Virus record (IMG/VR): IMGVR_UViG_3300028601_000023
Location: 64,001 to 128,000 of that record
DNA from: a virus
Lineage: Duplodnaviria; Caudoviricetes
Direction: 5' to 3' (one strand)
Length of the DNA stretch: 64,000 nucleotides
Shown: positions 2,811-61,595 of the stretch, piece after piece
Layout of the letters: every line of letters begins with the position of its first letter
Position numbering within the stretch: the stretch's first letter is position 1
Notes under the pieces: generated by a model
Told to the model about the DNA's origin: nothing
Database searches by the model: none
The model's input: only the letters and a program-made list of their open reading frames with translations
Made by a program: the position numbers and the translations under genes

Positions 2811-3169
2811 AATTATGAAAAAGTAGTTGACAGCTTTTCTTATCGGTTATATCTATTAATTGAAATTGCTTATAAACATCAACAATCAACCACAGAGTTT
2901 ATCATGATCACGACACTTTCTATCAGTTCCATCGAGATCGCAAACAGAGCTCGAAACCTTTACAAGCACAACGGACTATACTTCAGACTGTTTGCTAAAG
3001 GTATTACTCCTAATGGCTGCTGGTTGGTCGCTCCTTACATGCTGCAGCTGATTGATATTGATGCTGCAACTGGCGAAGACGTATATGGACAGAACAGGAT
3101 TGAGTTCATAGGAATGGTTGAGTCCAATAGAGAATATGTAAAATATTTTGACTGAAAGCGTAAAATTGA

Positions 3170-3243
3170 TTGACATATACTAACCATTTAGTTATTCTAA
3201 ACTCAATTGAACGGAACAATAACAAAAAACCAAGGAGTTTATC
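3170..3243 (+). promoter_or_regulatory. early promoter + leader cassette, copy 2
   Basis: TTGACA(3170)-17-TATTCT(3193), same leader. Confidence 0.85.
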
Positions 3244-7005: not shown

Positions 7006-7419
7006 TGACTGTAGTAAAAATTAACGACTATACAGATAATGAAGTAATTAATCTCATAGATTGTGTTACTGGGTGGGCATATAAGATTTTCTTTGAGGGT
7101 GGAAATAGTTCTATATGGTTGTGTCTAGATGTTGAAGGTGAAACAGTTTTTGTTGATTGTAACCATCTTTCTGTTGAAACCGCAGAATCTTTAACAGTAT
7201 CATATGATCCGATCATCAAGATTATTCCAATTGAAAATATAACTATTATTGCAGAGTAAGCAATGAATTCTGATCTCATAAGATGCACATACTGTGGAAG
7301 ATTCATCGCATATAAAGATCTTGAAGAAGAAACTGCTTCTTTCATAATGACTCTTCCTGAGTCTGCTTATTCAGTTGAGACATGGGTTGGAACATGTAAA
7401 GCATGCAACCAAAAAATGA

Positions 7420-7482
7420 TTGACAGCCCATCATGTTTCAGTTATTCTAAACTCAATTGAACAACAAACCAAGGAGATTGAA
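7420..7482 (+). promoter_or_regulatory. early promoter + leader cassette, copy 4 (true ORF start 7483)
   Basis: TTGACA(7420)-17-TATTCT(7443). Confidence 0.85.
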
Positions 7483-8792: not shown

Positions 8793-9271
8793 AGGAGAAT
8801 GTATGAATATCGGAACATGTTCTATTTGTGGAGGAGCCGTTACTACACCAGACGTTTGGCATGGTGTTATTCCGCCAACCCCGCGATGTTCTAGCTGTGG
8901 TGCAGTTCCTGCTGCTACTTATGGACCAATCATTCAAATGAGACCACAAGTGATTACTGAGATCATTACGACTGGTCCTACAACACTTAATCTATAAACA
9001 CCATTATGAACCTTATAACTTTTCTAACTATCTGGTCATGGATCTTGATGATTGCTGGAGGGATTCTTTCTATTGCCAATGCTGCAATGTTTTGGTATTA
9101 TGAATTCACGAACGACGGGCAGTATACTGTTCTTGTCTATGGTCCTAGACATTATTGGTCTGTTAAGTGGGCTGTTCTTTTTCTTGTAGTTGGTGTATCA
9201 ATATTCTTTTCATTGGAGTAAGCAATGCAAACTTTCATGCCGTATTGGGAAAATCTATTTAGGGGGAAGTT

Positions 9272-9544
9272 ATGAAAATTCGAGCGGGGTTTGTTTCTAA
9301 TTCGAGCAGCAGTTCATTTGTGGTTCATAAGTCTGAACTCGGCGAGCACTATAATGATATTGTAAATGATCTTGAATTGCTTAGTATCAATACTGATGGA
9401 TATTGGGGAGATTCCGGAGAAACTTATACTGAGCAGCGTGGATATCTATTTGTAGAAACTCATCGTGTCTATAGTGAAGTAAAAGAGATCTTTGCTCGTC
9501 GTGGAATCGATTGCAACAATATTGGACTACGGATGGTTGGCTAA
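9272..9544 (+). CDS. MKIRxGFVSNSSSSSF-motif protein 1
   Basis: N-terminal motif shared with 32431, 33212, 33511. Confidence 0.75.
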   Translation: MKIRAGFVSNSSSSSFVVHKSELGEHYNDIVNDLELLSINTDGYWGDSGETYTEQRGYLFVETHRVYSEVKEIFARRGIDCNNIGLRMVG

Positions 9545-16714: not shown

Positions 16715-16729
16715 AATAAATAAAAGTTG

Positions 16730-16799
16730 TTGACATCTAGACTCCGAATGGTTATTCTAATCTTAATTGAACGGAAACATATAACCATTCGGAGTTATC
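16730..16799 (+). promoter_or_regulatory. early promoter + leader cassette, copy 5 (with SD-sequestering inverted repeat)
   Basis: TTGACA(16730)-17-TATTCT(16753); actccgaatggttat / ataaccattcggagt. Confidence 0.8.
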
Positions 16800-17060
16800 A
16801 TGCTTTACCACCCCACTTACACTGCCGCAATTTCTACTGCTCTTGATTCCGCTGAAGAACTCGGTTATTCCTATGATGAAAATGAATACTTTGATACAAT
16901 AGCAATCGGAACATCTCGTCCAAAAGTTGGCGAGACTTCGAGATTCTCCCTTAGACTTCGTCACAATAGCATGAAAGCCACTGATGCTGATGTATATATT
17001 CATGTACAGGTTTATGGAATGGAATCTGGAATGTACGAACTTAACTTTTATATTCTGTAA
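16800..17060 (+). CDS. early hypothetical protein
   Basis: ORF after cassette; ends QVYGMESGMYELNFYIL. Confidence 0.7.
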   Translation: MLYHPTYTAAISTALDSAEELGYSYDENEYFDTIAIGTSRPKVGETSRFSLRLRHNSMKATDADVYIHVQVYGMESGMYELNFYIL

Positions 17061-17068
17061 AACAATTA

Positions 17069-17133
17069 TTGACATTCTATAAGCTATTAGTTATTCTAAA
17101 CTCAATTGAACAACAAATCCCTGGAGGATTAAG
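17069..17133 (+). promoter_or_regulatory. early promoter + leader cassette, copy 6
   Basis: TTGACA(17069)-17-TATTCT(17092). Confidence 0.85.
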
Positions 17134-20418: not shown

Positions 20419-20456
20419 AGACTTTCAAGCGCCGCAACGAAACAGTCAATAATATC

Positions 20457-20478
20457 GGGACCTTACGGTCCCTTTTTT
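20457..20478 (+). terminator. intrinsic terminator
   Basis: gggacc-ttac-ggtccc followed by tttttt. Confidence 0.8.
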
Positions 20479-20489
20479 AATTTTCTGCT

Positions 20490-20854
20490 AATTTTGTTGG
20501 TAAATATACAGCAATTTTCGTCAATTTCGGGAATAGTCAATTAATTCAACAGGTTAGATGAAATATAGACACACTCTAAGTGGTTGATTTAATTCAACAA
20601 AAAAAGATACCGTTATTTTCCACAACATTTTTCGTAAATCACAAAAGTGAACCGTTTAAAGTAGACAGCTGAAGGTTTTCTATATGTATTTCGCTGAATA
20701 TTCTACTAGAGAAGAGCGAAGCTAAATCTTTCCACTGAGGGAACCGAAGTGGATGTCCGCAAGGACAAAACTCTGATGAGATTTTATTAGATCACCGGAG
20801 TGAATACTTAAAGTAGACAGCTGAAAGTATTTTTAGACTAAAACTTTAGAGTCT
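20490..20854. repeat. dispersed non-coding repeat copy A (origin-like)
   Basis: two blocks (20490-20637, 20714-20854) nearly identical to 57271-57418 and 57494-57634. Confidence 0.95.
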
Positions 20855-21222
20855 CTAAGGTGGGCGGTAAAAAGTATATCTAAATCGTTCTATGAAATTC
20901 TATTTCAATTAATGATCAACCAATTTCTTCTATTGCCTCTAATTGTTCCCTAGCGGGAAATGGCCTCGGTTCCCTTCGGCCAAAGTTTTAATGGTTTCTA
21001 TAAATATTTCTATGGAAACCTTCTATCAAATTTTCAACTAAGTTTCTATTAATTTTTATTCATTATTTCTATGTTATATCCATGTTTTATAGCTCCAAAC
21101 TATATTTGCTTGTGACTAAGTATTCAAGATTATTGAAAATGATGAATTCGGCAACAATTTCAGCTATTCTATTGACAACTGAAGAATTTTGGAGTATATT
21201 AATCTTTTAACGGAGGATATCT

Positions 21223-32197: not shown

Positions 32198-32430
32198 AGG
32201 GATATATGACAGAAGAGAGTCTTGTATATAGACTACAAAAACGAGCAGAGATTCGTCGGCAAATTCCAGGTAGAAAATCTGTGCAGGAAAACAAACCTGA
32301 CCGAATTGCTGATTTATTAGAGGAAGCTGCAGCTGAAATTCTATATCTGAAGAAGATTGTTGAAGCACCTTGGAAATGCGATGTCTGTGGTAATTATGTA
32401 TCTAATGAATGCGCAGAAACGGAGTAGATC

Positions 32431-32865
32431 ATGAAAATTAGAAACGGATTTGTTTCCAATAGTTCAAGCAGTAGCTTTATTGTCATCAATGATTCTGGTA
32501 ATAAAGTTCATCCTTCATTTGGAGATGTTCTTGAAATTCGAATGACTGATGGAGAATATGAGTTTGGGTGGCAGGTGGAAGAATATTACGACTTCAATTC
32601 AAAGTTCAACTGGTGCTATATCATTGCTTCGTATCAAGCAGAAGAAGAAAAAGAACGTCTTCACCAGATGTTAATTGAAACAATTGAAGAAGAACTTTGT
32701 GTTCCAGTAGAAGTCAATTGGAATGCTCAATCAGAATATGACTATTATATCGATCATGGATCTGTTGAAGATCATAATATGGCTATGTTTGATAGTAAAG
32801 AAGATCTAAAGGCATTTCTCTTTGATCCAGCAAGTTATATTCACAATACTAATGATAATATGTAG
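32431..32865 (+). CDS. MKIRxGFVSNSSSSSF-motif protein 2
   Basis: shared N-terminal motif. Confidence 0.8.
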   Translation: MKIRNGFVSNSSSSSFIVINDSGNKVHPSFGDVLEIRMTDGEYEFGWQVEEYYDFNSKFNWCYIIASYQAEEEKERLHQMLIETIEEELCVPVEVNWNAQSEYDYYIDHGSVEDHNMAMFDSKEDLKAFLFDPASYIHNTNDNM

Positions 32866-33211
32866 GAGACTATGGAACTATCAGATCTAACATATGAAGC
32901 AGGATTTCCAGCAGACATGGATAAAACCCAGCCTATATATCTGTTCAATCCAGAATTTGGAATTATTTCTGTTCAACCATGTGTAATGTATAAGCAGGTT
33001 GTAACTGGAAAGTGGACAAGATCATATCTCGGTAGAACAAAAGCACCAAAAGGTATGACAGTATTCAATACAGGAGATAAAAAGTGATATGCCCATATTG
33101 TAATAAATCTGTAAAGGATATGGTTGCTCATCTAGAGAAATCTGAAAAGTGTGCTGAGAAACATACACGAAACCTAACAGACCAAATAAAAGTAATACTA
33201 GGAGATAAGAA

Positions 33212-33514
33212 ATGAAAATTCGAGCAGGGTTTGTGTCTAATTCAAGTAGTTCAAGTTTTTGTATTTTGGGTGTTGTTGCTTCTGACGTAATCAACTCAGA
33301 CATCAAATGGGATCTTCCAAAGGGGTTTGTTTCTGAATATGGTATCAGTGACTACGACGGCGAGCTGATTGGAATGAATCCAGAGAGTCTTGATGAGAAT
33401 ATGACAATCAAACAGACAAAGGAATATATTGCGAAAACATTGTCAGAATCTTACGGCGTAGAAGTAAAGCCAGAAGAAATTCATTGGCACATGGACGGAG
33501 GATATGACGGATGA
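33212..33514 (+). CDS. MKIRxGFVSNSSSSSF-motif protein 3
   Basis: shared N-terminal motif. Confidence 0.8.
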   Translation: MKIRAGFVSNSSSSSFCILGVVASDVINSDIKWDLPKGFVSEYGISDYDGELIGMNPESLDENMTIKQTKEYIAKTLSESYGVEVKPEEIHWHMDGGYDG

Positions 33515-33873
33515 AGATTAGAACAGGATTTGTAAGTAATAGTTCAAGCAGCAGTTTTATTCTTCCATATAATAAAGATCTAACCGTTTCTATTACTATG
33601 GATGATCTTATTGATATTATAGATAACGCAGATGAATCCAGTGTAGAAGAACCGTTACATACTGTTGATGATGTCAATAAATATTTTATTGCGCAATATG
33701 GATTTAGAGATCAGACTATTGAAGATCTATTGAAAGATGATTATTATCAAGAAAAATATGATGAACTGATTGAAATTATCAATAGAGGCCAGTCAGTACT
33801 TGTCGGTAGTATTTCATATCATGAACTGCTTGCTACGGCGTTGTTGACAAGAATGGGCGCTGAAATTGACTAA
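33511..33873 (+). CDS. MKIRxGFVSNSSSSSF-motif protein 4
   Basis: shared N-terminal motif. Confidence 0.8.
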   Translation: MKIRTGFVSNSSSSSFILPYNKDLTVSITMDDLIDIIDNADESSVEEPLHTVDDVNKYFIAQYGFRDQTIEDLLKDDYYQEKYDELIEIINRGQSVLVGSISYHELLATALLTRMGAEID

Positions 33874-34296: not shown

Positions 34297-34845
34297 GGCC
34301 TTCAGTTATAAAACAAATTCGAGATCTAGAACGTCAGATTGCTGAACGAAGGTATTCATTAATTTTTACTATCTATGACAATGTAATTGACAAGGAGCGA
34401 GACGATGTCTGATGAAGTTCAAATGGTGTCGAATTTGAAAACGAAAGAGGCGGTAAAGGTCAGTTACGAACAGTTTGAGAAGCTCCTAGCCGATGCCCTC
34501 TGGAAACACGCCGGGAAGCTCCGGGAGAGTCCGAGGACCTGTGCCGTGGACTACCGGCGCATGTTTGAGCGAATGCCCCTCCTCGAAGGCTGGAGCCTTC
34601 TGGCCCTGGCTCGAGAGCATGAGGAATTCCACCCGGAACGGGTAGCCCAAATCGAGGGGCTCCTGAAAAGGCGGACAGGAGCAGCGGAAATTTGTCGATC
34701 AGGGCGTGGCCTTTAGTTATAAAACAAATTCGAGATCTGGAACGTCAGATTGCTGAACGAAGACGTTCTTTAATTTCTATCTATGACAAGGAGCGAGACG
34801 ATGTCCGATGAAGTTCAAGTGGTGCTGAATCTGAAAACGAAAGAG
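34297..34845 (+). repeat. ~140-150 bp imperfect direct repeat (34297-34449 / 34708-34845) flanking a GC-rich insert
   Basis: both copies read ggcctt.agttataaaacaaattcgagatct...ggagcgagacgatgtc.gatgaagttcaa...aaaacgaaagag. Confidence 0.9.
34405..34716 (+). CDS. chimeric hypothetical protein (phage N-terminus + GC-rich body)
   Basis: MSDEVQ start shared with the 34801 ORF. Confidence 0.65.
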   Translation: MSDEVQMVSNLKTKEAVKVSYEQFEKLLADALWKHAGKLRESPRTCAVDYRRMFERMPLLEGWSLLALAREHEEFHPERVAQIEGLLKRRTGAAEICRSGRGL

Positions 34846-35229
34846 AAGTTCAAGATTACTTCTGAAACAATTGAAAAGCTTTGGCCGAAAACAGAAGATG
34901 ATTTTCAGAAACTCTTTCCTGGCCTAGGTTCCATCAGTAAACCATACAAGGATCCAATCGGTGATCGTCTCGCTGAATATCTTGTTACTGAAAAGAGATC
35001 TCTTATCATTACAATGTATATGCTTCAGAAGTTTACTGGAACTGTTTTTCCAATTTCTATCAAGGACAACGTTTACTATCCAATGATCTTTAAGTATAGA
35101 TCAGAGTTGCTTGAGATTCTTGAAGCTCTCGAAATCAATAATGCTGATACAGAATATCTCGAGCGGATCATCAATTTGATTTTCATTAAGCTCACCGGTG
35201 GAATGTATACTTCTGCTGGAACAGATTAG
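34801..35229 (+). CDS. hypothetical protein
   Basis: MSDEVQ start, AT-rich body. Confidence 0.65.
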   Translation: MSDEVQVVLNLKTKEKFKITSETIEKLWPKTEDDFQKLFPGLGSISKPYKDPIGDRLAEYLVTEKRSLIITMYMLQKFTGTVFPISIKDNVYYPMIFKYRSELLEILEALEINNADTEYLERIINLIFIKLTGGMYTSAGTD

Positions 35230-36346: not shown

Positions 36347-36817
36347 ATGCGAATTTTTGGAAACATCATCTGGCATCTGTTTTGTTTTGGGTGGCTGACA
36401 TCTTTGATTTCTGTTCTATTTGGCGCTCTATTTTCTATTACTGGATTTCTAACACCGATTGGACTAGGATTGATTCAGTACGCAAAATTTACTCTAGCTC
36501 CTTTTAGTTATTCTATGATCTCAAAGAAAGAACTTCGTCCAGTAACTCATCAGACTGGAATTCTATGGAAGTTGCTATCAGTTATTGGATTTATTTTCTA
36601 TGCTCCGTTTGGAATTGCTTTGGTGATTCTAGGAGTCTTTCAAGCAATCGTATTGATTTGTACTATTATTGGAATTCCTATGGCTATTCCATATATCAAG
36701 AGTCTCGGTACTCTATTCAATCCGATCGGAAAGGTTTGTGTTCCAAGAGTTGTCGCGACTGCGGTTAAAGCTCGGAACGATGCAATGGTAGTAGAAAAAT
36801 ATATTGGTAATGTGTAA
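36347..36817 (+). CDS. YccF-domain inner membrane protein
   Basis: GNIIW..FGW, PIGLG, TIIGIP.A, P.GK. Confidence 0.85.
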   Translation: MRIFGNIIWHLFCFGWLTSLISVLFGALFSITGFLTPIGLGLIQYAKFTLAPFSYSMISKKELRPVTHQTGILWKLLSVIGFIFYAPFGIALVILGVFQAIVLICTIIGIPMAIPYIKSLGTLFNPIGKVCVPRVVATAVKARNDAMVVEKYIGNV

Positions 36818-36825
36818 AATACTTG

Positions 36826-36897
36826 TTGACAGTACTCCTTGGTTGAGTTATTCTAAACTCAATTGAACGGAACAACAAAAACCAAGGAGTTTACAAA
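36826..36897 (+). promoter_or_regulatory. early promoter + leader cassette, copy 7 (with SD-sequestering inverted repeat)
   Basis: TTGACA(36826)-17-TATTCT(36849); actccttggtt / aaccaaggagt. Confidence 0.85.
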
Positions 36898-37162: not shown

Positions 37163-37241
37163 CTCCCTCTCGCCTAACTTGGTTATGGCTCTCGGTTTGG
37201 AGCCGAGTATAATGCTTGTTCGAATCAAGCGGGGGAGACCA
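37163..37241 (+). tRNA. tRNA-Pro(TGG)
   Basis: acceptor ctccctc/gggggag, anticodon arm ctcgg-tt TGG ag-ccgag, TTCGAAT, CCA. Confidence 0.9.
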
Positions 37242-37244
37242 TAT

Positions 37245-37316
37245 TCCGAAATAGCTCAATGGCAGAGCACGTGCCTGTTAAGCACAAGGTTTCTGGTTCG
37301 AGTCCAGATTTCGGAG
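37245..37316 (+). tRNA. tRNA-Asn(GTT)
   Basis: tccgaaa/tttcgga, ct GTT aa loop, GTTCGAGT. Confidence 0.9.
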
Positions 37317-37321
37317 CACAC

Positions 37322-37399
37322 GTCCTCGTAGTCCAACTGGTAGGAGACAAGAGATTCAAGATCTCTACAGTGTCTGTTCGAATCAGACCGGGGATACCA
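37322..37399 (+). tRNA. tRNA-Leu(CAA), short variable loop
   Basis: gtcctcg/cggggat, agaga-tt CAA ga-tctct, CCA. Confidence 0.85.
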
Positions 37400-37410
37400 G
37401 TAAAAATTAT

Positions 37411-37485
37411 GCCGGTATAGTTCAGTGGTAGAACGCTTGTTTTGTAATCAAGATGTCGGGAGTTCAAATCTCTCTATCGGCTCCA
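37411..37485 (+). tRNA. tRNA-Thr(TGT)
   Basis: gccggta/tatcggc, tt TGT aa loop, CCA. Confidence 0.9.
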
Positions 37486-37494
37486 ATAAATTTC

Positions 37495-37572
37495 GGCCCT
37501 TTATCCCAACTGGTAGAGGAAGCTGCTTTAGAAGCAGTAAATGTCTCAGTTCGAATCTGAGAGGGGCTACCA
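37495..37572 (+). tRNA. tRNA-Leu(TAG), short variable loop
   Basis: ggccctt/aggggct, gctgc-tt TAG aa-gcagt, CCA. Confidence 0.85.
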
Positions 37573-37576
37573 TTTC

Positions 37577-37652
37577 GTGTCTGAACCCAAATAGCGAGGG
37601 CACTGGCTGTGACCCAGTTGGCTAGTGGGAGCGTTACCCACCGGACACTCCA
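37577..37652 (+). tRNA. atypical tRNA-His(GTG)
   Basis: gtgtctg/cggacac, actgg-ct GTG ac-ccagt, T arm gtggg-agcgtta-cccac (non-canonical loop), CCA. Confidence 0.7.
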
Positions 37653-37653
37653 A

Positions 37654-37766
37654 ATTTTGACCACTCTTAGCAGAGGAGCGTAGATACGGCGGATTGTCTT
37701 GCGGCACTTATCGATTACGTCACATCATCCAAGAGTAAGCAGACATGAGGGATGATTGGTCAAAAT
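37654..37766 (+). ncRNA. candidate structured RNA following the tRNA array
   Basis: closing stem attttgacca/tggtcaaaat with three internal stems. Confidence 0.55.
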
Positions 37767-37820
37767 ATCTATTGACATTTTATCTTAACTTAGATATTCT
37801 ATTCTCATCTGAAACAATAT

Positions 37821-37896
37821 TGCCGTATAGTTCAATTGGTAGAATCCCCGGCTCATAACCGGACAGTTACATGTTCAAGTCATGTTGCGGCAACCA
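37821..37896 (+). tRNA. tRNA-Met(CAT) (or Ile2)
   Basis: tgccgta/tgcggca, ccgg-ct CAT aa-ccgg, GTTCAAGT, CCA; own TTGACA promoter near 37772. Confidence 0.9.
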
Positions 37897-41149: not shown

Positions 41150-41773
41150 ATGAGTTATTCTATCATTGATTTAAGGTACAATTCTATAACTGAAATCTTC
41201 AGCTATGACAGACTATTGCTTTGGATCAATGATAGTTGTTGTCATTGGCAGACTTGGAGAGGAGACAGAAAACAACTTCTCAAATATACAATTGCTAATA
41301 ATCCAAACGAATTCAGCTGGACCTATGAACGTCAAGTCAGACAGTATTTGATTCTTGATGAATATGACAGAATTATATCTCGTGAGATTTTGACTGATGA
41401 AATTCTTTCCAAGACTAAAGAATGGTTTGGTACTATTAGAAAAGAACGAAATCGGGAACAGCTTGCAGCCTGGAAAGCAAAAAGAGAAATCATAGACGAA
41501 CAATGGGAATTCTGGTCTTCTAGAAGAGATCGTTACAAATATTATGATTATCATCGTCATCCTCGGACTACACAAGAAAGATCTTTTGCTGTAGACGTGG
41601 ATCACAAACCATATGTTAGAGGCAAAAGATCTCTTCCAAATCTCCCAGACTGGTATCAAGATATTCCGATTTATATTCACAGAAAGAAATCGTGGAAAGC
41701 ACTGACAAAAAGAAAAAGACAGTGGAATCCTATTGACAAATCTATAGAATCAGAATATTCTAAACTCAATTGA
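41150..41773 (+). CDS. conserved phage hypothetical protein
   Basis: RHPRTTQE..VRGKRS..NLPD...KSWK..TKRKRQW. Confidence 0.65.
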   Translation: MSYSIIDLRYNSITEIFSYDRLLLWINDSCCHWQTWRGDRKQLLKYTIANNPNEFSWTYERQVRQYLILDEYDRIISREILTDEILSKTKEWFGTIRKERNREQLAAWKAKREIIDEQWEFWSSRRDRYKYYDYHRHPRTTQERSFAVDVDHKPYVRGKRSLPNLPDWYQDIPIYIHRKKSWKALTKRKRQWNPIDKSIESEYSKLN

Positions 41774-41800
41774 ACGGAACAATAAACCAAGGAGTTTCAA
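41733..41800 (+). promoter_or_regulatory. early promoter + leader cassette, copy 8
   Basis: TTGACA(41733)-17-TATTCT(41756). Confidence 0.85.
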
Positions 41801-44155
41801 ATGGGAAAGTATGATCATCAGGGTTCGTTTACATTTTGGGGAAATCGTATCTATCCTTTACCAGATGGTCTCGGAATCAACGTCAATTACAGCATGTACA
41901 GCTCAAGCATAGACGATATTTCTATTGATGAACTTGGAATCGTGTTTGATAATCTTTCTGAAGTAGATGCAAAAGATTTTTCCGATGTAGATTCTGTTAT
42001 CAAGGCTAAAGATAATCCGCCCCATAAAGATGAAAGCCATATTATGATCAAATTGTTTTCATTGATCTCTGAACTTCAGATCGAAGCATGGGAAGATTTT
42101 CAATCAAAAGGAAGGTTATCTAAATGACTACTTTTACTTATGCAGATATGGTCAATACTGCTACAATGTTGGAACTCTTTACTTTGTTAGAAGCTGATCC
42201 AAATGTTTCTAGTAGAATTGATGATTTTTTCTTTATCTATATCGATGGGCATTATGATATTGCTCCGATGCACTATCCTATGCAATCTCTTTGCAAGTTT
42301 CTTGAAAATCCCGGCACCGTTGACGAAATTGTCGAGTTGTATGGATTAGAAATGATTGATCTTATTCGGTTCATGTGTGGAGATTGTCTATTTTGATAAA
42401 TAGATATCAGAGGTATATACATGGAAACAAAAGTTTTAGAAAAATTACAGATCTGTGACATTAATTCAAAAGAACATACAGAACTGATGATTCGAATTGT
42501 TGAGTTGTTAAGTTCTATTGATAAACAAATCAAATCCCTCGAAGAATCTGTAAAGTCTGCTCATAGGAGGACAGAAAATGGAAATCAGATGCACGGAATG
42601 TAATGCACATCTTGGAGATATTACCGGGAAGATTCGACTGTCTATGACCAACTATATCTGTACAAAATGTCTCAAGAAACTAAAAGCAATGGAATCGTTG
42701 AAGAACTCTGGATATCCTAAGAATGATTTTGGAGATATCTTCGGCGATCTGTTCGGCGACACATTTAGACGTTGACAGATCCGAATCGTTTGGGTATATT
42801 GATCCCAACAAAGGAGCTTATATGAAAAAGATCAAGACTATTATCATCTCGTGTCTGTTGGTTGTTTGTCTGCAGACATCAGCGTTTGCGTGGGGTGCTT
42901 TGGAACAGGGTATTCTCTGGGGTGTTGGCGGGACTATTGTAACACAGCAGCTGCTTCGTCCTCAGGTTGTTCATGTTCATCCTGCATATCAACCAACATA
43001 TTTTCCGTATACTCGGAGATACGTGGAACCATATCATGCCCCTCGTCCTGTAGAACCAATTTACAGAGAGACTGAAGCATACGATCCTGCTTGTGGTTGT
43101 TATAAGCGGGTCTTCATAAGAATTAATTAAGAACAATACTATCTGGAGGCATTTAGTGGATATTCTTTGTCCTTATTGTAATGCAGACGCTGATCAGATT
43201 TTGATTACTGCATTAGATAAAGAAGCGTGTTGGTGCGATGAATATGGTGTTTACTACAAGAAAGTTTTGAATGCTACACCAGAAGAAATGGATACTGCTA
43301 TTTACTCAAGTAACTATTGCTTCAAGTGTTGCGTCTGTGGATCCCTTCTACAACATTCTTATATCAACCATTATTATATCCGGGAACTCGAACGGAATAA
43401 AGGTAAAGCAGCATGATCAAGAAATACTGGTATGAAATCATTACTCCTCTTGGAACATTTAAATCTGATGGAGCAATGTGTACAGAAGAAACCTTAGAAA
43501 GAGCAAAAAAGTATATAGCTTGTGTATGTCAAGATGTTGCAAATCCAAATATAGCTTCTTCACATTGGTTTATTGTAAATAAAGAATTCGTTTACTTTCC
43601 AGATACTATTCTTGCTAATAGCATAATCAAAATCAAAACCGGATACAAATGGTGGTAATAATGGAAACATATATTAACTGCATGGATTGTCCTAACCATA
43701 TTGTAGAAGCTGATCCAGATCCGCATGATTGGTTTTGTGATGACGATCAGGCTGTTCTATGTACTTTAGCAAAAAATATTAATAATCAACATCGTTGGTG
43801 TGATAATCGTGTTTGGGTTCATAGACCCATTACATGGAGTTGTAGACCACATCATAAACGAGCAGATTGTGTTACTCCAGAATGGCGCCCGTTGCTTCAC
43901 AAAGAAGAACCCGCCACGTGTATCTGTGAAGGCAACTTTAGAAATATTATAAAAGAGACTGGAGGGCTGATCGGAAAAGATTTTAAAGATGCTAACAATA
44001 GAACATGGGAGTTTGCTGGAGTTCTCTGGGCATCTGACGATTTTTATTATGTCTTTGAACTTGAATCATATGATGCTGATATAACTCGGTATTGCTCTTG
44101 TATTGTTTCAATCGAACAGCACGGATTTAAACTTGTAGAATAGTAAAAGAATTAG

Positions 44156-44227
44156 TTGACAGAACTCCTTGGTTCAGTTATTCTAAACTCAATTGAACGG
44201 AACAACAACAAAACCAAGGAGTTTAAA
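44156..44227 (+). promoter_or_regulatory. early promoter + leader cassette, copy 9 (with SD-sequestering inverted repeat)
   Basis: TTGACA(44156)-17-TATTCT(44179); aactccttggtt / aaccaaggagtt. Confidence 0.85.
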
Positions 44228-52842: not shown

Positions 52843-54630
52843 CTATCTCAAAGCGCCAGCAGCAAGTCCACCGAAAGGATCTGTCATATTGATAACTCTG
52901 TTCTGGTGGGTAGTTGAATTCACCGTGTTATTTACTATTGGTTGAACGTTAACATTATTCACATTTGTTTTAGACAATTTTGTTTCATTTGCTTGTTGCG
53001 TTTTCAATCCAGCAACCATGTCTTTGTATGTATACGGCTTCAATGATTCTACAAGTTTCTTTTTACTATCCTGGTCTAACAATTCAAAAGGTTTTGCTTG
53101 AACTTGCGGCGTGGTTCCTGGAATATCAAGTGGATCATAAATAGTCTGTTTCTTTGTTGGTAAAGGCTCTAATTTAGTTGGATCTTCTTTAGGTGTTATA
53201 ACCTTCTTTACCCAATCTGGAAGAATATCATACAGTTTATCAAATACCTTCTTAAACAAATCGGTCACAGGCTTGATAAAGAATTCTTGTATAGTATCTG
53301 TGATAGTTGTAAACGCATTCTTGAATGGTGAAATAATATTATCAAATGTTAGATTTGAAAGAGATTCAAATCCTGAACGAATTGGAGCAATTACAGATTC
53401 ATTAAAAAGATCTTTCAAAAATGTATATGCTTCAACAGCAGGGTCTGATACATATTGCTTGAATAATCCTTGAAGATACGAATATCCTTCTATTACTGGA
53501 TTCACAATATACTTCATAGCCAAACCGGATACATATTCATATCCTTCTTGGGTTTTCGTAATAAACCATTCATACCCGTCAGATATCTTCTGAATAGAAT
53601 ATTCATATCCATCAGCCATCATCATCTTAAACCCTTCATATCCTTCAACGGCCCAGTCCTTCATAGAATTCCAAGCTTCTGCTGTTTTCTCGGTTAGATA
53701 ATTGAATCCTTCTACTGCTTTTAGTTTTATGTTGTCAAAAGCTTCAAAAACAAAATCCTTTACTGCAATAATCTGGTCTTCGAATTTCTTATAGACATAA
53801 CTAAGACCAGATAAAATAAGCATTCCTAGAGGAACAAGAAGCATTCCTTTCAAGAGCATTAGAACACCCTTGGAGAACACACCCATAAATCCCTTGGTGA
53901 ATTTCCCGAAGAAGCTTGTAGAACCAGCTAAACCTGCTGCAGCATCAGCGCCTGCACGAACACGTTCTATTCTGTTTCCAGTAGTTGTGATATCACCGTC
54001 TCGAACAATTGGAGATTCTCTTTCTTCTATTTGAGATTGTCCTTCTTCTTGAGCGTCTCGAATAGCAGAGAAAACTGATTCAGCAACTTCTGTCTGTAAC
54101 TTCTCAGCTCTTTCCTTTTTAGTCTTTCGATTATCCATAAAGTTAGAAGCAAAGTCTCCGATACGAGTTGACAAATAACTGAAGATCGGCGGCATGTCTG
54201 TAAATATAGTAGATAATACACCAGTCACATCACCAATCCTTTTAACAAACTGATTACCCATCCGATCAAAAATAGACGTAGCAGATTTCATTGAATCTAT
54301 AGCAGAGTTGTATGCAGCAAGAGCAACTTCTTTTTCTTTATCTGTTGCAAATACCGAATCTTTAATAGCTGTCTTAATATACTCAAATGATTTGATCTGA
54401 TCAGCTCGTTCTGACATAGAACTTCTAGAAGCTTCTTGTAACTGATCAGCAATGTTTGTCATAATAACATTGAAAGCAGCAGAGTTCCGTTTTAGATCTC
54501 CTGCAACTAACTTCTGTGACTCACGAATCCGGAGCTCAACAGACTTCATTGAGTTACCAGCTTTCTCTCGTTCTATAGCTTCCTGAATGGTTGTTTCACC
54601 ATTGTTGTTTTCTGGTCTTGGTAGCGCCAT
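52843..54630 (-). CDS. baseplate hub / tape measure protein (gp29-like)
   Basis: helical, TM segment, ~11-residue W/F periodicity, N-rich C-terminus. Confidence 0.7.
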   Translation of the reverse strand: MALPRPENNNGETTIQEAIEREKAGNSMKSVELRIRESQKLVAGDLKRNSAAFNVIMTNIADQLQEASRSSMSERADQIKSFEYIKTAIKDSVFATDKEKEVALAAYNSAIDSMKSATSIFDRMGNQFVKRIGDVTGVLSTIFTDMPPIFSYLSTRIGDFASNFMDNRKTKKERAEKLQTEVAESVFSAIRDAQEEGQSQIEERESPIVRDGDITTTGNRIERVRAGADAAAGLAGSTSFFGKFTKGFMGVFSKGVLMLLKGMLLVPLGMLILSGLSYVYKKFEDQIIAVKDFVFEAFDNIKLKAVEGFNYLTEKTAEAWNSMKDWAVEGYEGFKMMMADGYEYSIQKISDGYEWFITKTQEGYEYVSGLAMKYIVNPVIEGYSYLQGLFKQYVSDPAVEAYTFLKDLFNESVIAPIRSGFESLSNLTFDNIISPFKNAFTTITDTIQEFFIKPVTDLFKKVFDKLYDILPDWVKKVITPKEDPTKLEPLPTKKQTIYDPLDIPGTTPQVQAKPFELLDQDSKKKLVESLKPYTYKDMVAGLKTQQANETKLSKTNVNNVNVQPIVNNTVNSTTHQNRVINMTDPFGGLAAGALR

Positions 54631-57175: not shown

Positions 57176-57270
57176 GTATATATTTATTGACGGCAAAAAC
57201 CGCGGCAAAAGCACCTTTAAAGCAATGACCTATAACCTGCTTATATAATTAATGTTTTTGAATTTTCATC

Positions 57271-57634
57271 AATTTTGTTGGTAAATATACAGCAATTTTC
57301 GTCAATTTCGGGAATAGTCAATTAATTCAACAGGTTAGATGAAATATAGACACACTCTAAGTGGTTGATTTAATTCAACATTTGTAGATACCGTTATTTT
57401 CCACAACATTTTTCGTAATTGCGGAGCAAATGACTATAAAGTGGCTATAGCTGAAGTTTTATTCTGTAGATTTTTATGGAAACTAACTGAAAGGAGCGAA
57501 GCTAAATCTTTCCACTGAGGGAACCGAAGTGGATGTCCGCAAGGACAAAACTCTGATGAGATTTTATTAGATCACCGGAGTGAATACCTAAAGTAGACAG
57601 CTGAAAGTATTTTTAGACTAAAACTTTAGAGTCT
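57271..57634. repeat. dispersed non-coding repeat copy B (origin-like)
   Basis: matches 20490-20854. Confidence 0.95.
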
Positions 57635-58228
57635 TCATGGAATGATAGAAATAATTTAAAAGTATATCTATCAGCTTATAGTTATATTGACGAGCTTCTA
57701 ATTGATAGATGAATTTCAATATCAACTAATTGATCATTCTCCGGTTCCCTCCGAATGATACCGTCACTAGTTCCTAGTGACAATGGTTTTAATGGTTCCT
57801 TTAAAATTCTATTCTAAATACCTTTATTGTTCGTTATTTCTAGATCCAAAACCAATAGGTTTTTAATCTAAGCAATTAAATTTATTCTAATCTCATTCTC
57901 CGGTTCCCTCCGAATGACCGTCGCCAGTTCCTGGCTCCGATATTTTGTTGGTCCTTATTTACTATTCTTGAAGTTTATAAATATCAATTAACGATTCTTT
58001 TAAATTTATTCTATTATTTTATATTATGTCCCTCCAAAACCAATTTAAACTGAATGTAAAGTATTGAAATTGGAAGGCCAGGCCAAAACTGATTGACAAT
58101 TGGATGATGGTTGATATATGAATTGTTATTCAGTCTAATGAAACAAATATCAACCTTGGCTGAATTGCCTATTGACAGATATCTAGAAATGTTATAAATA
58201 TATCAAATCTTGTGGAATTAGGAGTCAT

Positions 58229-60070
58229 ATGTTTGTTTCCAGAAAACATCTAGCCGAACATTTGTCAGCAATAGAAGAGAATGAACTTTCAGCCGAAATC
58301 TTTATTGCTGATAAAATTCTCAATCATCCTGTTTTTTGTGACATTATCAACCCAGATCACAATTTTTCAACCGATACCGTCTTTAATAAAGCCATCTATG
58401 ATAAACTTGTTGCTGCTGCAACGCTAACAACAATATATCATTATCTTCGTGCGTCTAATATATCAATGTATGAGCAGTTTGCTGTAACTCCTTATATATT
58501 GAGCAAGTTCTATAGATTTGATAGAGATGTATTTCTCGGCTATGGTGCCGGAATTACACGCATGACAAAAGAAGATAAGCCGTCATCTTATTTAAGTCCT
58601 TTTATAACTCATGTACAGCGCGGATACTATTTCTATAAGAACTGTCCTCAAAATAAGCTTCCAGAATATAGATTCACACAAGAAGCACTTGATCTATTGT
58701 TGACTATTGATTCAGATGATACTAAATATATCAAAATAGATCTTAAAAAGCATTATACTGCAGTTGCTGAATATTCTTCAGAAATTTCGCGCCGTGGACA
58801 ATTTGTAAATAAAGTTGAAGTTCCAGTCTTGGTATATAATGGAAAAGAATATACTAGAGGTAATGTTAGTTCTGCTATTGCTCATTTCTCCAAACAAAAA
58901 GGTCATCCATACGTTATTTGGAATAAAGAATATAAAAATGAAATACTTCCGAAGATGATTGAAGAATTTTATTCTCTTTATTCGTTTCCGGAAGTAAAAG
59001 TTCCGACCTCTCCAACAGCTAAAGAACTATTTGAATCTTCTACTATTAAAGTATATTCATATGACGAGTTCAAATCTGAGTTTTATGAGATCGCTTTAGG
59101 AACTCCATGGTTGACAAAACAGAAAAATACTGTTTTTGAACATACCGCTCAGCTCGATCTATCAAACATTGAAGATTTAATTGCTAACGAATCAAATAAC
59201 TTACATGTAATCGCAACACTTGAACTAATTAAGTATGAGGCGTTCAAGACTAACAATAATATTAAGCTCGAATATCATAGATCTCAGCATGGAAGACTCT
59301 ACCAATCAGGACCGTCTCTGCAAATGTTACCCAAAGCAATTCGCAAGAAACTGTTGTCCAAATATACTGAAATTGATATTGCTTCATCAGTCTATTCTAT
59401 TGTTTATAATTATGCAAAGAACAATAACTACACTGGTTCAATGGACCATATCACCAATTATGTAGATGATCCTCATGGATTTCGAAAGAAGCTCCATTCT
59501 AATCTATCTGAAATTGATCCAACTGTGACGGAAGATTATGTTAAAACTAATCTGATTGCTGTTGCTTATGGTGCTAATTATAATGCTAACTATATTGGGT
59601 TTGATGCTCGTAAGAAATGTCCTCAGACTATAGCTGTCACGACTTCCGGCTATACTATGACAGATGTCCCAGAACGGTTAGCAGACAACAAAGACTTCCA
59701 GAATCTCATTGCAGATTTCCGTGGAATTGTCAAATGGTATATAGATAATCATAAAGTAAAGACAGAAACTGGAACATATTTTGAGAACGCTCTTGGTGCT
59801 AAGATGAAACTTGAACGTGGAACATCCCTTGGCAAGAAATTGGCTCATATGTATCAGGCTCTAGAAGTCATTATTCTCGAAAAAATGGCATCAGTCCCAG
59901 TACCGAAGTATGGAAATCTATCGCTGAAGAGTACTCGAAACGGTATTGGTCTAATGCTTCATGATGGAATCTACGTATTGAAAGAACATTTTGAAGGTAT
60001 TCCAGATGTTAGTAAGTATTTCAACGAGTTCATCAAGAATGCTTTGGGATATGATCTGAGATTTGATTGA
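58229..60070 (+). CDS. PolA/T7-RNAP-superfamily polymerase-domain protein lacking exonuclease domains
   Basis: HGRLYQ..PSLQMLPK.IR, motif A EIDIAS, motif B K-x7-YG (KTNLIAVAYG), YQALE, motif C LMLHDGIY. Confidence 0.75.
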   Translation: MFVSRKHLAEHLSAIEENELSAEIFIADKILNHPVFCDIINPDHNFSTDTVFNKAIYDKLVAAATLTTIYHYLRASNISMYEQFAVTPYILSKFYRFDRDVFLGYGAGITRMTKEDKPSSYLSPFITHVQRGYYFYKNCPQNKLPEYRFTQEALDLLLTIDSDDTKYIKIDLKKHYTAVAEYSSEISRRGQFVNKVEVPVLVYNGKEYTRGNVSSAIAHFSKQKGHPYVIWNKEYKNEILPKMIEEFYSLYSFPEVKVPTSPTAKELFESSTIKVYSYDEFKSEFYEIALGTPWLTKQKNTVFEHTAQLDLSNIEDLIANESNNLHVIATLELIKYEAFKTNNNIKLEYHRSQHGRLYQSGPSLQMLPKAIRKKLLSKYTEIDIASSVYSIVYNYAKNNNYTGSMDHITNYVDDPHGFRKKLHSNLSEIDPTVTEDYVKTNLIAVAYGANYNANYIGFDARKKCPQTIAVTTSGYTMTDVPERLADNKDFQNLIADFRGIVKWYIDNHKVKTETGTYFENALGAKMKLERGTSLGKKLAHMYQALEVIILEKMASVPVPKYGNLSLKSTRNGIGLMLHDGIYVLKEHFEGIPDVSKYFNEFIKNALGYDLRFD

Positions 60071-60124: not shown

Positions 60125-61057
60125 TTGAAACGACCAAGTATTCATGTCAGAGGTAGAAATGCGACCGAAGCATTTGAGAACGCAATTGTAACTTTAAAGG
60201 ACGACCCGGATTTTATTTGTTCCCCTAGAGGACAGAAGATCCACGAATGCATTAATGCCGTAGTAGAAGTTGATGACATTCATGACAATGTTGTATGGAC
60301 ACCAGATCGAAAGATCTCTCTAAAGTACTTAGTTGCTGAATTGTGTTGGTATCTATCTGGAGACCAATCTAGAATCGGCGCCAATGCTATTGCTCATTAT
60401 GCAAAGTTCTGGGATTCTATTCGTAATCCAGACGGAACGCTTAATTCTAACTATGGACATTATATCTTTAAACGTATGGGATCAGTTCTTCCATATTTTA
60501 CTGATGCACACACTGATTACTTTGAAAAAAATCAATTTCAATACGTAGTAGAAAAACTAAAAGAAGATAAAGATTCTCGTCAAGCGATTATCAATATTAA
60601 TTCTATTCATCACAAACGATTTCCAACAAAAGACTTTCCTTGTACTACATCTATTCAGTTTATGATCCGTGAAGATGTACTCTATATGACTGTTCATATG
60701 AGATCTTGTGATATTGTTCTTGGGTACTGCAATGATGTCTTTCAGTTCTGTCATATTCAGAAATTAGTATGGCGAGAATTGTCTGAGGTTTATCCAGCCC
60801 TAGAATGCGGATCTTATACACTTATGGCAAATTCTTTGCATCTCTATGAACGTCATTTTGATATGGCTGATAAGATTAGTGAAGCAGATGGAACCGAAAC
60901 TCCTGTTATGAACTCTACTGATTATTATTGTCCTACACTTGAAGAATATGAATCGTTACTTGGATTTGAAGCTGCTTTGCGTCTACATGGAAATGCAGCA
61001 AATCTAACATACAAACCAGAACTCATTCAGAAATATACAACTTGGTTAAGGGGTTAA
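60125..61057 (+). CDS. thymidylate synthase homolog, dCMP hydroxymethylase type (gp42-like)
   Basis: NSNYG, DSRQA, DFPCT, MRSCDIVLGYCND, SLHLYERHF. Confidence 0.8.
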   Translation: MKRPSIHVRGRNATEAFENAIVTLKDDPDFICSPRGQKIHECINAVVEVDDIHDNVVWTPDRKISLKYLVAELCWYLSGDQSRIGANAIAHYAKFWDSIRNPDGTLNSNYGHYIFKRMGSVLPYFTDAHTDYFEKNQFQYVVEKLKEDKDSRQAIININSIHHKRFPTKDFPCTTSIQFMIREDVLYMTVHMRSCDIVLGYCNDVFQFCHIQKLVWRELSEVYPALECGSYTLMANSLHLYERHFDMADKISEADGTETPVMNSTDYYCPTLEEYESLLGFEAALRLHGNAANLTYKPELIQKYTTWLRG

Positions 61058-61058
61058 A

Positions 61059-61595
61059 ATGGCTATTATCGTTGAAGGAATTGACAATATTGGTAAGTCT
61101 ACGTTCATTCAGAAACTTCGGAATGAAGCCTTTCCCTGGCCTGTAGTGCATTCATCTAAACCAGAAAAACTAAAGGTTCTAGGAGATTCCGAATCTCTTT
61201 ATCAGATGCATTACTTTTCTACATGGTTTAATATGATGTCAGCAAGAAAATCTAATGTTATCTTTGATCGTCTACATCTCGGTGAATGGGTTTATGCTCC
61301 TCTGTATCGTGGATATACTCCAACGTTTATTCCTGTTCTGCCTAGAGCTCGTCTTGATACTATTCTTGTTCTACTAAAAGCAAATGATTTCTCCCTGATC
61401 GTTGATGATGGAAAATCTATTGATGCTAGTAATATGAAAAAAGAACAAGAATTGTTTCTAGATGCTTTCAAAAAGGATGAGATCTGCTTCAATAAACAGA
61501 TCATTGAGATTGATTGTGACGGCGTTCGAAAGACTGTAGACGAATTGTATGATGAATTTATGAAGGTCTGGAAACAAATGCTTCAGTCAATGTAA
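61059..61595 (+). CDS. thymidylate-kinase-like dNMP kinase
   Basis: IVEGIDNIGKST, FDRLHLGE.VY.P.YRG. Confidence 0.85.
   Translation: MAIIVEGIDNIGKSTFIQKLRNEAFPWPVVHSSKPEKLKVLGDSESLYQMHYFSTWFNMMSARKSNVIFDRLHLGEWVYAPLYRGYTPTFIPVLPRARLDTILVLLKANDFSLIVDDGKSIDASNMKKEQELFLDAFKKDEICFNKQIIEIDCDGVRKTVDELYDEFMKVWKQMLQSM

Follow-up and report, generated by a model that had tools for sequence, protein, structure and literature searches.

Opposed DNA hairpin arrays linked to a minimal family A polymerase gene in T4-like phages: a possible initiation module

The window analysed here is a stretch of 64,000 nt, bases 64001 to 128000 of a 141,174-bp record of an uncultivated virus (IMGVR_UViG_3300028601_000023) that is estimated to be 80% complete. 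It carries a hairpin-rich non-coding spacer and, directly after it, the gene for a 613-amino-acid protein, P0001, which is predicted from alignment and structure modelling to be an active, proofreading-free, short-thumbed family A polymerase of the TV-Pol/divPolA2 kind. The linkage of hairpin arrays to this gene holds across distant phages. We propose, with a probability of about 0.4 and on comparative grounds, that the arrays and the minimal polymerase form an initiation module for hairpin-directed DNA synthesis, most likely for DNA replication. As far as the literature that can be searched shows, the pairing of opposed GNA-mini-hairpin arrays with this polymerase is undescribed in T4-like phages. 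An earlier note on this DNA had called the whole system undescribed in such phages. This stands for the pairing and does not stand for the enzyme type, which is already known from TV-Pol, divPolA2 and CcPol-MP, the last of these a primase shown biochemically.

The spacer, its hairpins and the polymerase gene are laid out in the window as follows (loci are designated by L with a number).

57215 to 58228, no strand assigned: non-coding spacer of 1014 nt with repeat copy B, between a divergent minus-strand gp4-like head-completion gene and the polymerase gene.
57255 to 57650, plus strand: conserved core of a three-copy repeat, with two blocks near-identical in all copies and a variable stretch between them.
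57495 to 57503, plus strand: AGC-GAA-GCT mini-hairpin of the GCGAAGC type (PMC13037366).
57511 to 57533, plus strand: composite hairpin TCCACT / GA / GG-GAA-CC / GA / AGTGGA, identical in all three copies.
57534 to 57547, plus strand: hairpin GTCC-GCAA-GGAC, which is GTCCC-GAA-GGGAC in copy C, a structure-keeping change.
57733 to 57759, minus strand: composite hairpin ATCATTC / GGA / GG-GAA-CC / GGA / GAATGAT.
57763 to 57781, minus strand: hairpin GTCACTAG-GAA-CTAGTGAC, terminator-like when read on the plus strand and then followed by a short T run.
57893 to 57917, minus strand: second composite hairpin, with a 6-bp stem, TCATTC / GGA / GG-GAA-CC / GGA / GAATGA, conserved in L003.
57923 to 57935, minus strand: hairpin GCCAG-GAA-CTGGC.
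57976 to 57983, plus strand: T4-type late-promoter box TATAAATA, mid-spacer and downstream of the hairpin modules.
58172 to 58200, plus strand: TTGACA and then TATAAATA, likely the early and late promoters of the polymerase operon, with the same layout upstream of the L013 and L008 homologues.
58229 to 60070, plus strand: predicted minimal family A polymerase gene encoding P0001 (613 amino acids), assigned by open reading frame, alignment, AlphaFold model and structure matches.
P0001, residues about 300 to 613: predicted short thumb remnant, palm and fingers. Residues 1 to 300: divergent N-terminal globular region, possibly winged-helix-like at about 31 to 168.

The earlier note had listed four minus-strand hairpins in the spacer, and all four were found exactly where it had placed them. 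As single-stranded DNA, the listed segments gave z scores of -3.9 and -2.7 against shuffled sequences. Composite segments as a whole ranged from -2.2 to -3.9, and the minus-strand segment of copy A reached only -1.3. Plain hairpins with a 4-bp stem and a GAA loop are common by chance (47 in the genome), and their counting was dropped as non-specific. We defined the composite design by three parts: an outer stem no shorter than 4 bp, a purine internal loop of 2 to 3 nt on each side and an inner NN-GAA-N'N' mini-hairpin. Genome-wide this design occurred nine times, compared with about 1.9 in shuffles, and the three repeats accounted for eight of the nine instances. Of these eight, the three in the conserved core are on the plus strand, and the other five, 200 to 500 nt further on, are on the minus strand. 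The string GGGAACC was found six times in the window where 1.8 were expected, five of them within the two repeat copies that the window holds. A broader motif allowing any GNA or GNNA loop had too high a background for use, yet it added plus-strand matches in L008 and L019.

The presence of hairpins of the same kind beside distant homologues of the gene, which the earlier note had made the test of its proposal, was confirmed in SRB7757, L008 and L019. Among the relatives in the phage collection just one is cultured, Nitratidesulfovibrio phage SRB7757, whose host is Nitratidesulfovibrio vulgaris ATCC 7757. Its homologous open reading frame matched the family profile over nearly the full length (E = 1.3e-55) and follows about 1.1 kb of hairpin-dense non-coding DNA, with the loops GA-GCGAAGC-GA, GAA-GCGAAGC-GAA or GA-GCCGAAGGC-GA. 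In the complete 142,573-bp SRB7757 genome the composite motif occurred five times, compared with 0.7 in shuffles, and four instances lay within 350 nt directly upstream of the homologue. Upstream of the homologue in metagenomic L008 (35% identity) the loops are AGA-ACGAAGT-GAA and GA-ATGAAAT-GA, and in metagenomic L019 they are GA-GCGCAGC-GAA and TGA-CCGAAGG-GAG. In the three copies of the virus studied here and in SRB7757, L008 and L019, plus-strand hairpins are distal to the gene and minus-strand hairpins proximal to it. Design and polarity are thus shared by four lineages that have no more than about 28 to 35% identity to P0001 in the polymerase half, while the letters of the mini-hairpin vary by lineage (GGGAACC, GCGAAGC, GCCGAAGGC, ACGAAGT, ATGAAAT, CCGAAGG). 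Lineage-specific letters within a conserved design are what one would expect if a co-evolving protein reads a structured signal.

Among relatives with a complete gene, 13 of 16 have a long non-coding spacer or a contig end no more than 1.3 kb upstream of it, and the contigs that end there include ones of 15.5, 20.3, 26.9 and 70.7 kb. The L003 contig breaks inside a repeated hairpin module, which suggests that the breaks in assembly are caused by repeats. In SRB7757, a segment of 44 to 68 nt in the spacer (65.3 kb; L022 6065-6132), near the polymerase promoter, recurs at PV062637.1 41-84 and 142490-142557, at both ends of the record, with 96 to 98% identity and in opposite orientations.

In the virus studied here the hairpins belong to a repeat, of which the earlier note had counted two copies. 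The 141-kb genome contains three, namely copy C at 28.1 kb of G000, copy A at 84.4 kb and copy B at 121.2 kb; copy C lies outside the window, at 28.1 to 29.2 kb. About 390 nt of the spacer recur at window positions 20474-20854 with 93 to 98% identity. Copy A occupies positions 20419 to 21222 (no strand assigned) upstream of an NrdG-like gene and has composite hairpins at 20731-20753 (plus strand) and 20961-20982 (minus strand). Copy C (G000:C1:28127-29273; L002 3128-4274) is located between a gp46-like gene and a CobT/CobS-like pair and is composite, with minus-strand hairpin modules of both the copy B and the copy A type and a 45-nt insertion. The genes downstream are CobT/CobS-like for copy C, NrdG-like and dCMP deaminase for copy A and the polymerase operon for copy B.

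No open reading frame of at least 40 amino acids was found in the spacer (57215-58228). The spacer matched no Rfam family and gave no blastn match in the phage collection. As RNA, the repeat core folded slightly better than shuffles (z = -2.0). We also considered an IS605/omega-RNA origin of the repeat and rejected it, since nothing in Rfam matched and the tnpB region showed no similarity. In this genome the cumulative GC skew climbs monotonically, and in SRB7757 it peaks at about 63 kb, near the spacer; it is confounded by gene orientation and was not used as evidence.

Searches with P0001 and its relatives against Pfam, PHROGs, NCBIfam and PDB sequences gave no match. An exhaustive phmmer search collected 60 relatives of P0001; besides one twin of 94% identity, these share only the C-terminal 280 or so residues, at 26 to 36% identity. 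IMG/VR was scanned for the protein pattern and for two core segments, with no match. Within the family, divergence is far greater in the N-terminal half than in the half with the polymerase, as a specificity domain would lead one to expect. Across 29 aligned sequences, Y349, G355, R356, R372, D383, K439, G448, N520, E546, H578 and D579 are invariant, and position 447 is mostly Y or F. The motif A Asp, the motif B Lys...Tyr-Gly and the motif C His-Asp of family A are all present. The motifs lie where they had been placed before, with HGRLY at 354-358, EIDIAS at 381-386, K439-x7-Y447-G448 and LHDG at 577-580. The block G-R356-x8-Q365-x6-R372 parallels the TGR...LQNIP..R block of DNA polymerase I (Klenow numbering). 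P0001 differs from DNA polymerase I in that the Arg of the O-helix RxxxK is absent (E435, variable in the family, stands four residues before K439), in that no steric-gate Glu follows motif A (position D383+5 is V, A, I or T in the family) and in that motif C is HDG and not the canonical HDE.

An AlphaFold model of P0001 was built on the 29-sequence alignment; a single-sequence model (predicted local distance difference test score, pLDDT, of 33) was of no use. The model has a pLDDT above 90 over residues 300-613 and moderate confidence in the N-terminal region. Foldseek matched the C-terminal half to family A polymerases with a probability of 1.0. With VIA-align/Foldseek, residues 300-613 matched polymerase theta, Klenow, Bst, Taq and T7 DNA polymerase at Z 14-15.8 over about 275 residues (root mean square deviation 3.7-4.2 A). 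T7 and mitochondrial RNA polymerases (RNAPs) scored Z 11.7-13 and N4 RNAPs Z 6-8. These matches and the invariant catalytic residues bear out the PolA/T7-RNAP-superfamily fold that the earlier note had read from motifs. Profile alignment (hhalign) of the family with the single sequences of T7 DNA polymerase and T7 RNAP was not significant. In the model, G355-R356 is located at the turn of a beta-hairpin (E344-351/E357-360), and the thumb consists of two short helices only. The structure search also agreed with the earlier failure to see an exonuclease: it found no match to an exonuclease fold in residues 1-300, where model confidence is moderate. Winged-helix-like matches of residues 31-168 were weak (Z about 4) and are a lead, not a result. 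The nearest predicted structures among viral and Atlas models were uncharacterised phage proteins and virophage TV-Pol-helicase fusions.

TV-Pol is the minimal core of the superfamily, with predicted primase-polymerase activity (Iyer, Abhiman, Aravind 2008, PMC2579912). P0001 resembles it in the minimal core, the beta-hairpin Arg, the two catalytic Asp (D383, D579) and the fingers Lys; TV-Pols, too, are never linked to a nuclease, and a subset has an N-terminal globular domain (PMC2579912). Unlike TV-Pol, P0001 lacks the RxxxK Arg and has no D5-like helicase, resolvase, integrase or transposase nearby; its neighbours, gp4-like, thymidylate-synthase-like, kinase, PAAR and gp25, are the same in relatives. 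The P0001 family profile found no match in the TV-Pol-bearing Ma-LMM01 genome. An extra diverged PolA, divPolA2, has been described in phages that keep PolB, where it was suggested to take part in repair or to be an RNAP (Yutin et al. 2024, Virol J 21:200, PMC11348598). Like P0001 as predicted here, divPolA2 is additional to a regular PolB and has an active palm, no 3'-5' exonuclease, no canonical thumb and a globular domain at the N-terminus that has no known relatives, and its structural matches are to DNA polymerases and to mitochondrial and N4 RNAPs (PMC11348598). The GRxY...Q.LPK..R...D block of the P0001 family aligns with the representative AUR84708. This alignment was marginal (hhalign, E = 0.011) and covered 43 columns only, from GRxY to motif A; a hidden Markov model search of the AUR84708 genome with the P0001 family gave no match. 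With the alignment limited to one block and no match in the genome of AUR84708 or in Ma-LMM01, we therefore regard P0001 as a new branch within an enzyme kind that is already known. The genomic neighbourhoods also differ: those of divPolA2 are variable and hairpin arrays are unmentioned (PMC11348598), whereas the P0001 gene has a fixed position in the T4-like core and a conserved hairpin-bearing spacer. CcPol and its partner MP make DNA primers de novo (Bebel et al. 2020, PMC7581432; Rice 2023, PMC10061031). This PolA-based primase of SCCmec prefers a site at the origin of its own element (PMC7581432). CcPol needs the small OB-fold partner MP and acts together with a helicase from its own operon, whereas neither adjoins P0001, which is followed by thymidylate-synthase-like and kinase genes.

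Hairpins of comparable design serve as initiation or promoter signals in other systems. RSF1010 has CCGAAGG in its ssiA, to which the RepB' primase binds, the complementary-strand origin of G4 contains mini-hairpin sequences, N4 early promoters are of the same type, and GCGAAGC-type mini-hairpins are notable for their stability as DNA (review PMC13037366). The arrays resemble ssiA/ssiB and G4 in that stem-loops carry a GNA mini-hairpin, and the CCGAAGG of ssiA also occurs in L019. As in RSF1010, where the ssi signals are on opposite strands and read by a dedicated primase, the hairpins here are on opposite strands (PMC13037366). The primases of the ssi and G4 systems, however, are of archaeo-eukaryotic primase (AEP) or DnaG type and not PolA type, and their elements belong to plasmids or a single-stranded DNA phage and not to a T4-like double-stranded DNA phage. 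N4 virion RNAP (vRNAP), an enzyme of the same superfamily as P0001, recognises short-stemmed extruded hairpins of the template strand that have 3-nt purine loops (PMC4496689). It differs in being a virion protein of 3500 amino acids that makes RNA, and P0001 matches it weakly (Z 6-8).

The virus is T4-like. On the minus-strand side of the locus there are gp53-, gp3-, gp2- and gp4-like genes, and on the plus strand the order is the 613-codon polymerase frame, a thymidylate-synthase-family gene, a small kinase gene, PAAR, gp25 and gp6. The earlier note had reckoned with gp43 and gp61 elsewhere in the genome, and both are encoded there: a 903-amino-acid family B polymerase (gp43/PolB) and a gp61-like primase (phrog_47, E = 1.7e-47), together with a gp41-type helicase, both topoisomerase II subunits and gp46/47-like proteins. 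A complete T4-type replication set is thus present, and P0001 is therefore extra. One further feature follows the polymerase gene.

60125 to 61595, plus strand: thymidylate-synthase-family gene and small kinase gene, in fixed order after the polymerase gene in the window, L003, L008/L009, L010 and L011.

This pair is always downstream of the polymerase gene in relatives. The thymidylate-synthase-family protein scored 69 bits, where cut-offs for thymidylate synthase are at least 108. The two genes probably encode a pyrimidine hydroxymethylase and kinase pair for a modified base.

Other repeats and small elements were found in the window. A 66-nt early-promoter cassette is present in eight copies (830-895, 3160-3225, 7410-7475, 16720-16785, 17059-17124, 36816-36881, 41723-41788 and 44146-44211), with TTGACA, a 17-nt spacer, TATTCT and then the conserved leader CTCAATTGAACGGAAC. 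In make-up the cassette is similar to the promoter-early stem-loop cassettes of T4-type phages, and its palindromic TCAATTGA is like sites in the repeat core. Several small open reading frames (9267-9322, 32426-32481, 33207-33253 and 33511-33561) share the N-terminal peptide MKIR.GFVSNSSSS... although their DNA has diverged. A tandem duplication of about 400 nt at 34297-34880 contains two related small genes with segments 80 to 90% identical. Six tRNA genes (Pro, Asn, Leu-CAA, Thr, Leu-TAG and Met) are clustered at 37163-37896, and an Rfam scan of the window found tRNAs only. A 33-nt periodic repeat in three copies of 65 to 71% identity was located at 53533-53647, inside the minus-strand open reading frame 52843-54630 (595 amino acids) of the structural region.

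If the arrays and P0001 do form an initiation module, the hairpins would act as single-strand initiation signals, each a stem-loop presenting a very stable GNA mini-hairpin amid purine mismatches. They would extrude when the AT-rich spacer is unwound or supercoiled. P0001 would recognise them, probably through its fast-evolving N-terminal region, and start a short chain on each strand; the chains would run outward both ways until gp43 takes over, and the three repeat copies would be three origins. Synthesis outward in both directions follows if the hairpin marks the template strand. Recognition of the hairpins and primer synthesis by this protein had been proposed in the earlier note, whose interpretation is partly supported.

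Several observations weigh against such a module. Only one of the three repeat copies adjoins the polymerase gene; the other two are 37 and 93 kb away, beside unrelated genes. There is no evident priming gap, since a gp61-like primase, gp41 and gp43 are already present. The polymerase gene accompanies nucleotide-metabolism genes, with no helicase or single-strand-binding protein as partner of the sort found with TV-Pol and CcPol, and P0001 is without the O-helix Arg. Read on the plus strand, the gene-proximal hairpins look like terminators, with a late promoter after them. In relatives, the spacers of L035, L013, L020 and L021 are long and structured or repeat-rich, yet lack the exact motif, and the homologue P0004 (locus L005) has no spacer at all. 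At this position L035 (1-1281) has another hairpin vocabulary: its spacer is an internal duplication of about 500 nt and contains GTGCG-GTA-CGCAC hairpins as well as GCCCGGTACCGGGC palindromes.

Part of this evidence would also be explained if the polymerase and the repeats were unrelated, P0001 being a repair, gap-filling or lesion- or modified-base-tolerant DNA polymerase that is expressed together with the hydroxymethylase-type and kinase genes. The repeats would then be modules for regulation or recombination, or else a small gene for a structured RNA followed by tandem terminators, with a tendency to sit at operon boundaries. We consider this explanation less probable than the initiation module, yet a serious competitor to it. 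Five loci keep the order polymerase, thymidylate-synthase-like, kinase, PAAR, gp25 and gp6, divPolA2 has been proposed to act in repair (PMC11348598), and the distant repeat copies and terminator-like hairpins fit it as well. One T-G to T-A change and the swap of a GCAA for a GAA loop in copy C would suit an RNA read from the plus strand, as would the slightly favourable fold of the core. A single RNA, however, leaves the GAA loops on both strands unexplained; the core has no Rfam match and no promoter was found for it, and the stability for which GCGAAGC-type mini-hairpins are notable is that of DNA (PMC13037366). The comparative results also speak against independence of gene and repeats: in SRB7757 the motif is peculiar, genome-wide, to the polymerase gene's spacer, where four of its five instances lie, and design and polarity recur in all four lineages despite the distance between their polymerase halves.

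The polarity of the arrays could alternatively mean that P0001 is a hairpin-promoter-specific RNAP like N4 vRNAP/RNAPII, with the minus-strand hairpins as template-strand promoters directed rightward into the downstream operons and the plus-strand hairpins directed leftward. The minus-strand hairpins do face downstream plus-strand genes in all three copies, N4 promoters are short-stem hairpins with 3-nt purine loops (PMC4496689), and the authors who described divPolA2 raised an RNAP role for it (PMC11348598). The role fits poorly, however, because the downstream genes carry ordinary early and late promoters (TTGACA and TATAAATA) and because plus-strand hairpins in copies A and C, as in SRB7757, would drive antisense transcription into upstream genes that are already terminated. 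The enzyme itself gives signs of both kinds. T7 and mitochondrial RNAPs score near the DNA polymerases and N4 RNAPs also match, motif C is HDG and the steric-gate Glu is missing; against this, DNA polymerases are the top structural matches and the spacing GR-x8-Q-x(5-7)-R agrees with DNA polymerase I in Klenow numbering. We therefore regard an RNAP as unlikely. It is very improbable that the repeats represent the termini or remnants of a mobile element that P0001 replicates, a role proposed for the TV-Pols of transposons. TV-Pols with an N-terminal domain do occur in elements that have direct repeats of some 200 nt on either side (PMC2579912). Three direct repeat copies are present in this genome. 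An IS605-type tnpB gene presumably lies elsewhere in it, but the repeats have no similarity to the tnpB region; in distant relatives the gene keeps a fixed, syntenic place within the T4-type core, its neighbours at the locus include no recombinase, integrase or helicase, and SRB7757 has a single copy.

An initiation module of hairpin arrays and minimal polymerase thus remains our preferred reading. Its wider form, which we put forward tentatively, is that a clade of T4-like phages may possess an unrecognised type of origin, with outward-facing GNA-mini-hairpin arrays on opposite strands and a dedicated PolA primase-polymerase whose variable N-terminus would co-evolve with the hairpin of its lineage, and that the virus studied here may have three such origins.

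How replication starts in T4-like phages outside the T4/MotA group is largely unexplained, and the papers on TV-Pol and divPolA2 leave open what such extra minimal PolA enzymes do in the many phages that have them besides a replicase. A DNA signal that can be recognised in sequence is now tied to one branch of these enzymes, across distant phages. The cultured SRB7757 is among the linked phages, and priming, transcription and repair can therefore be directly tested with defined substrates. If priming is the true role, this would be the third example of hairpin-directed initiation, after RepB'/ssi and N4 vRNAP, and the first PolA-type enzyme to prime inside a large lytic phage.

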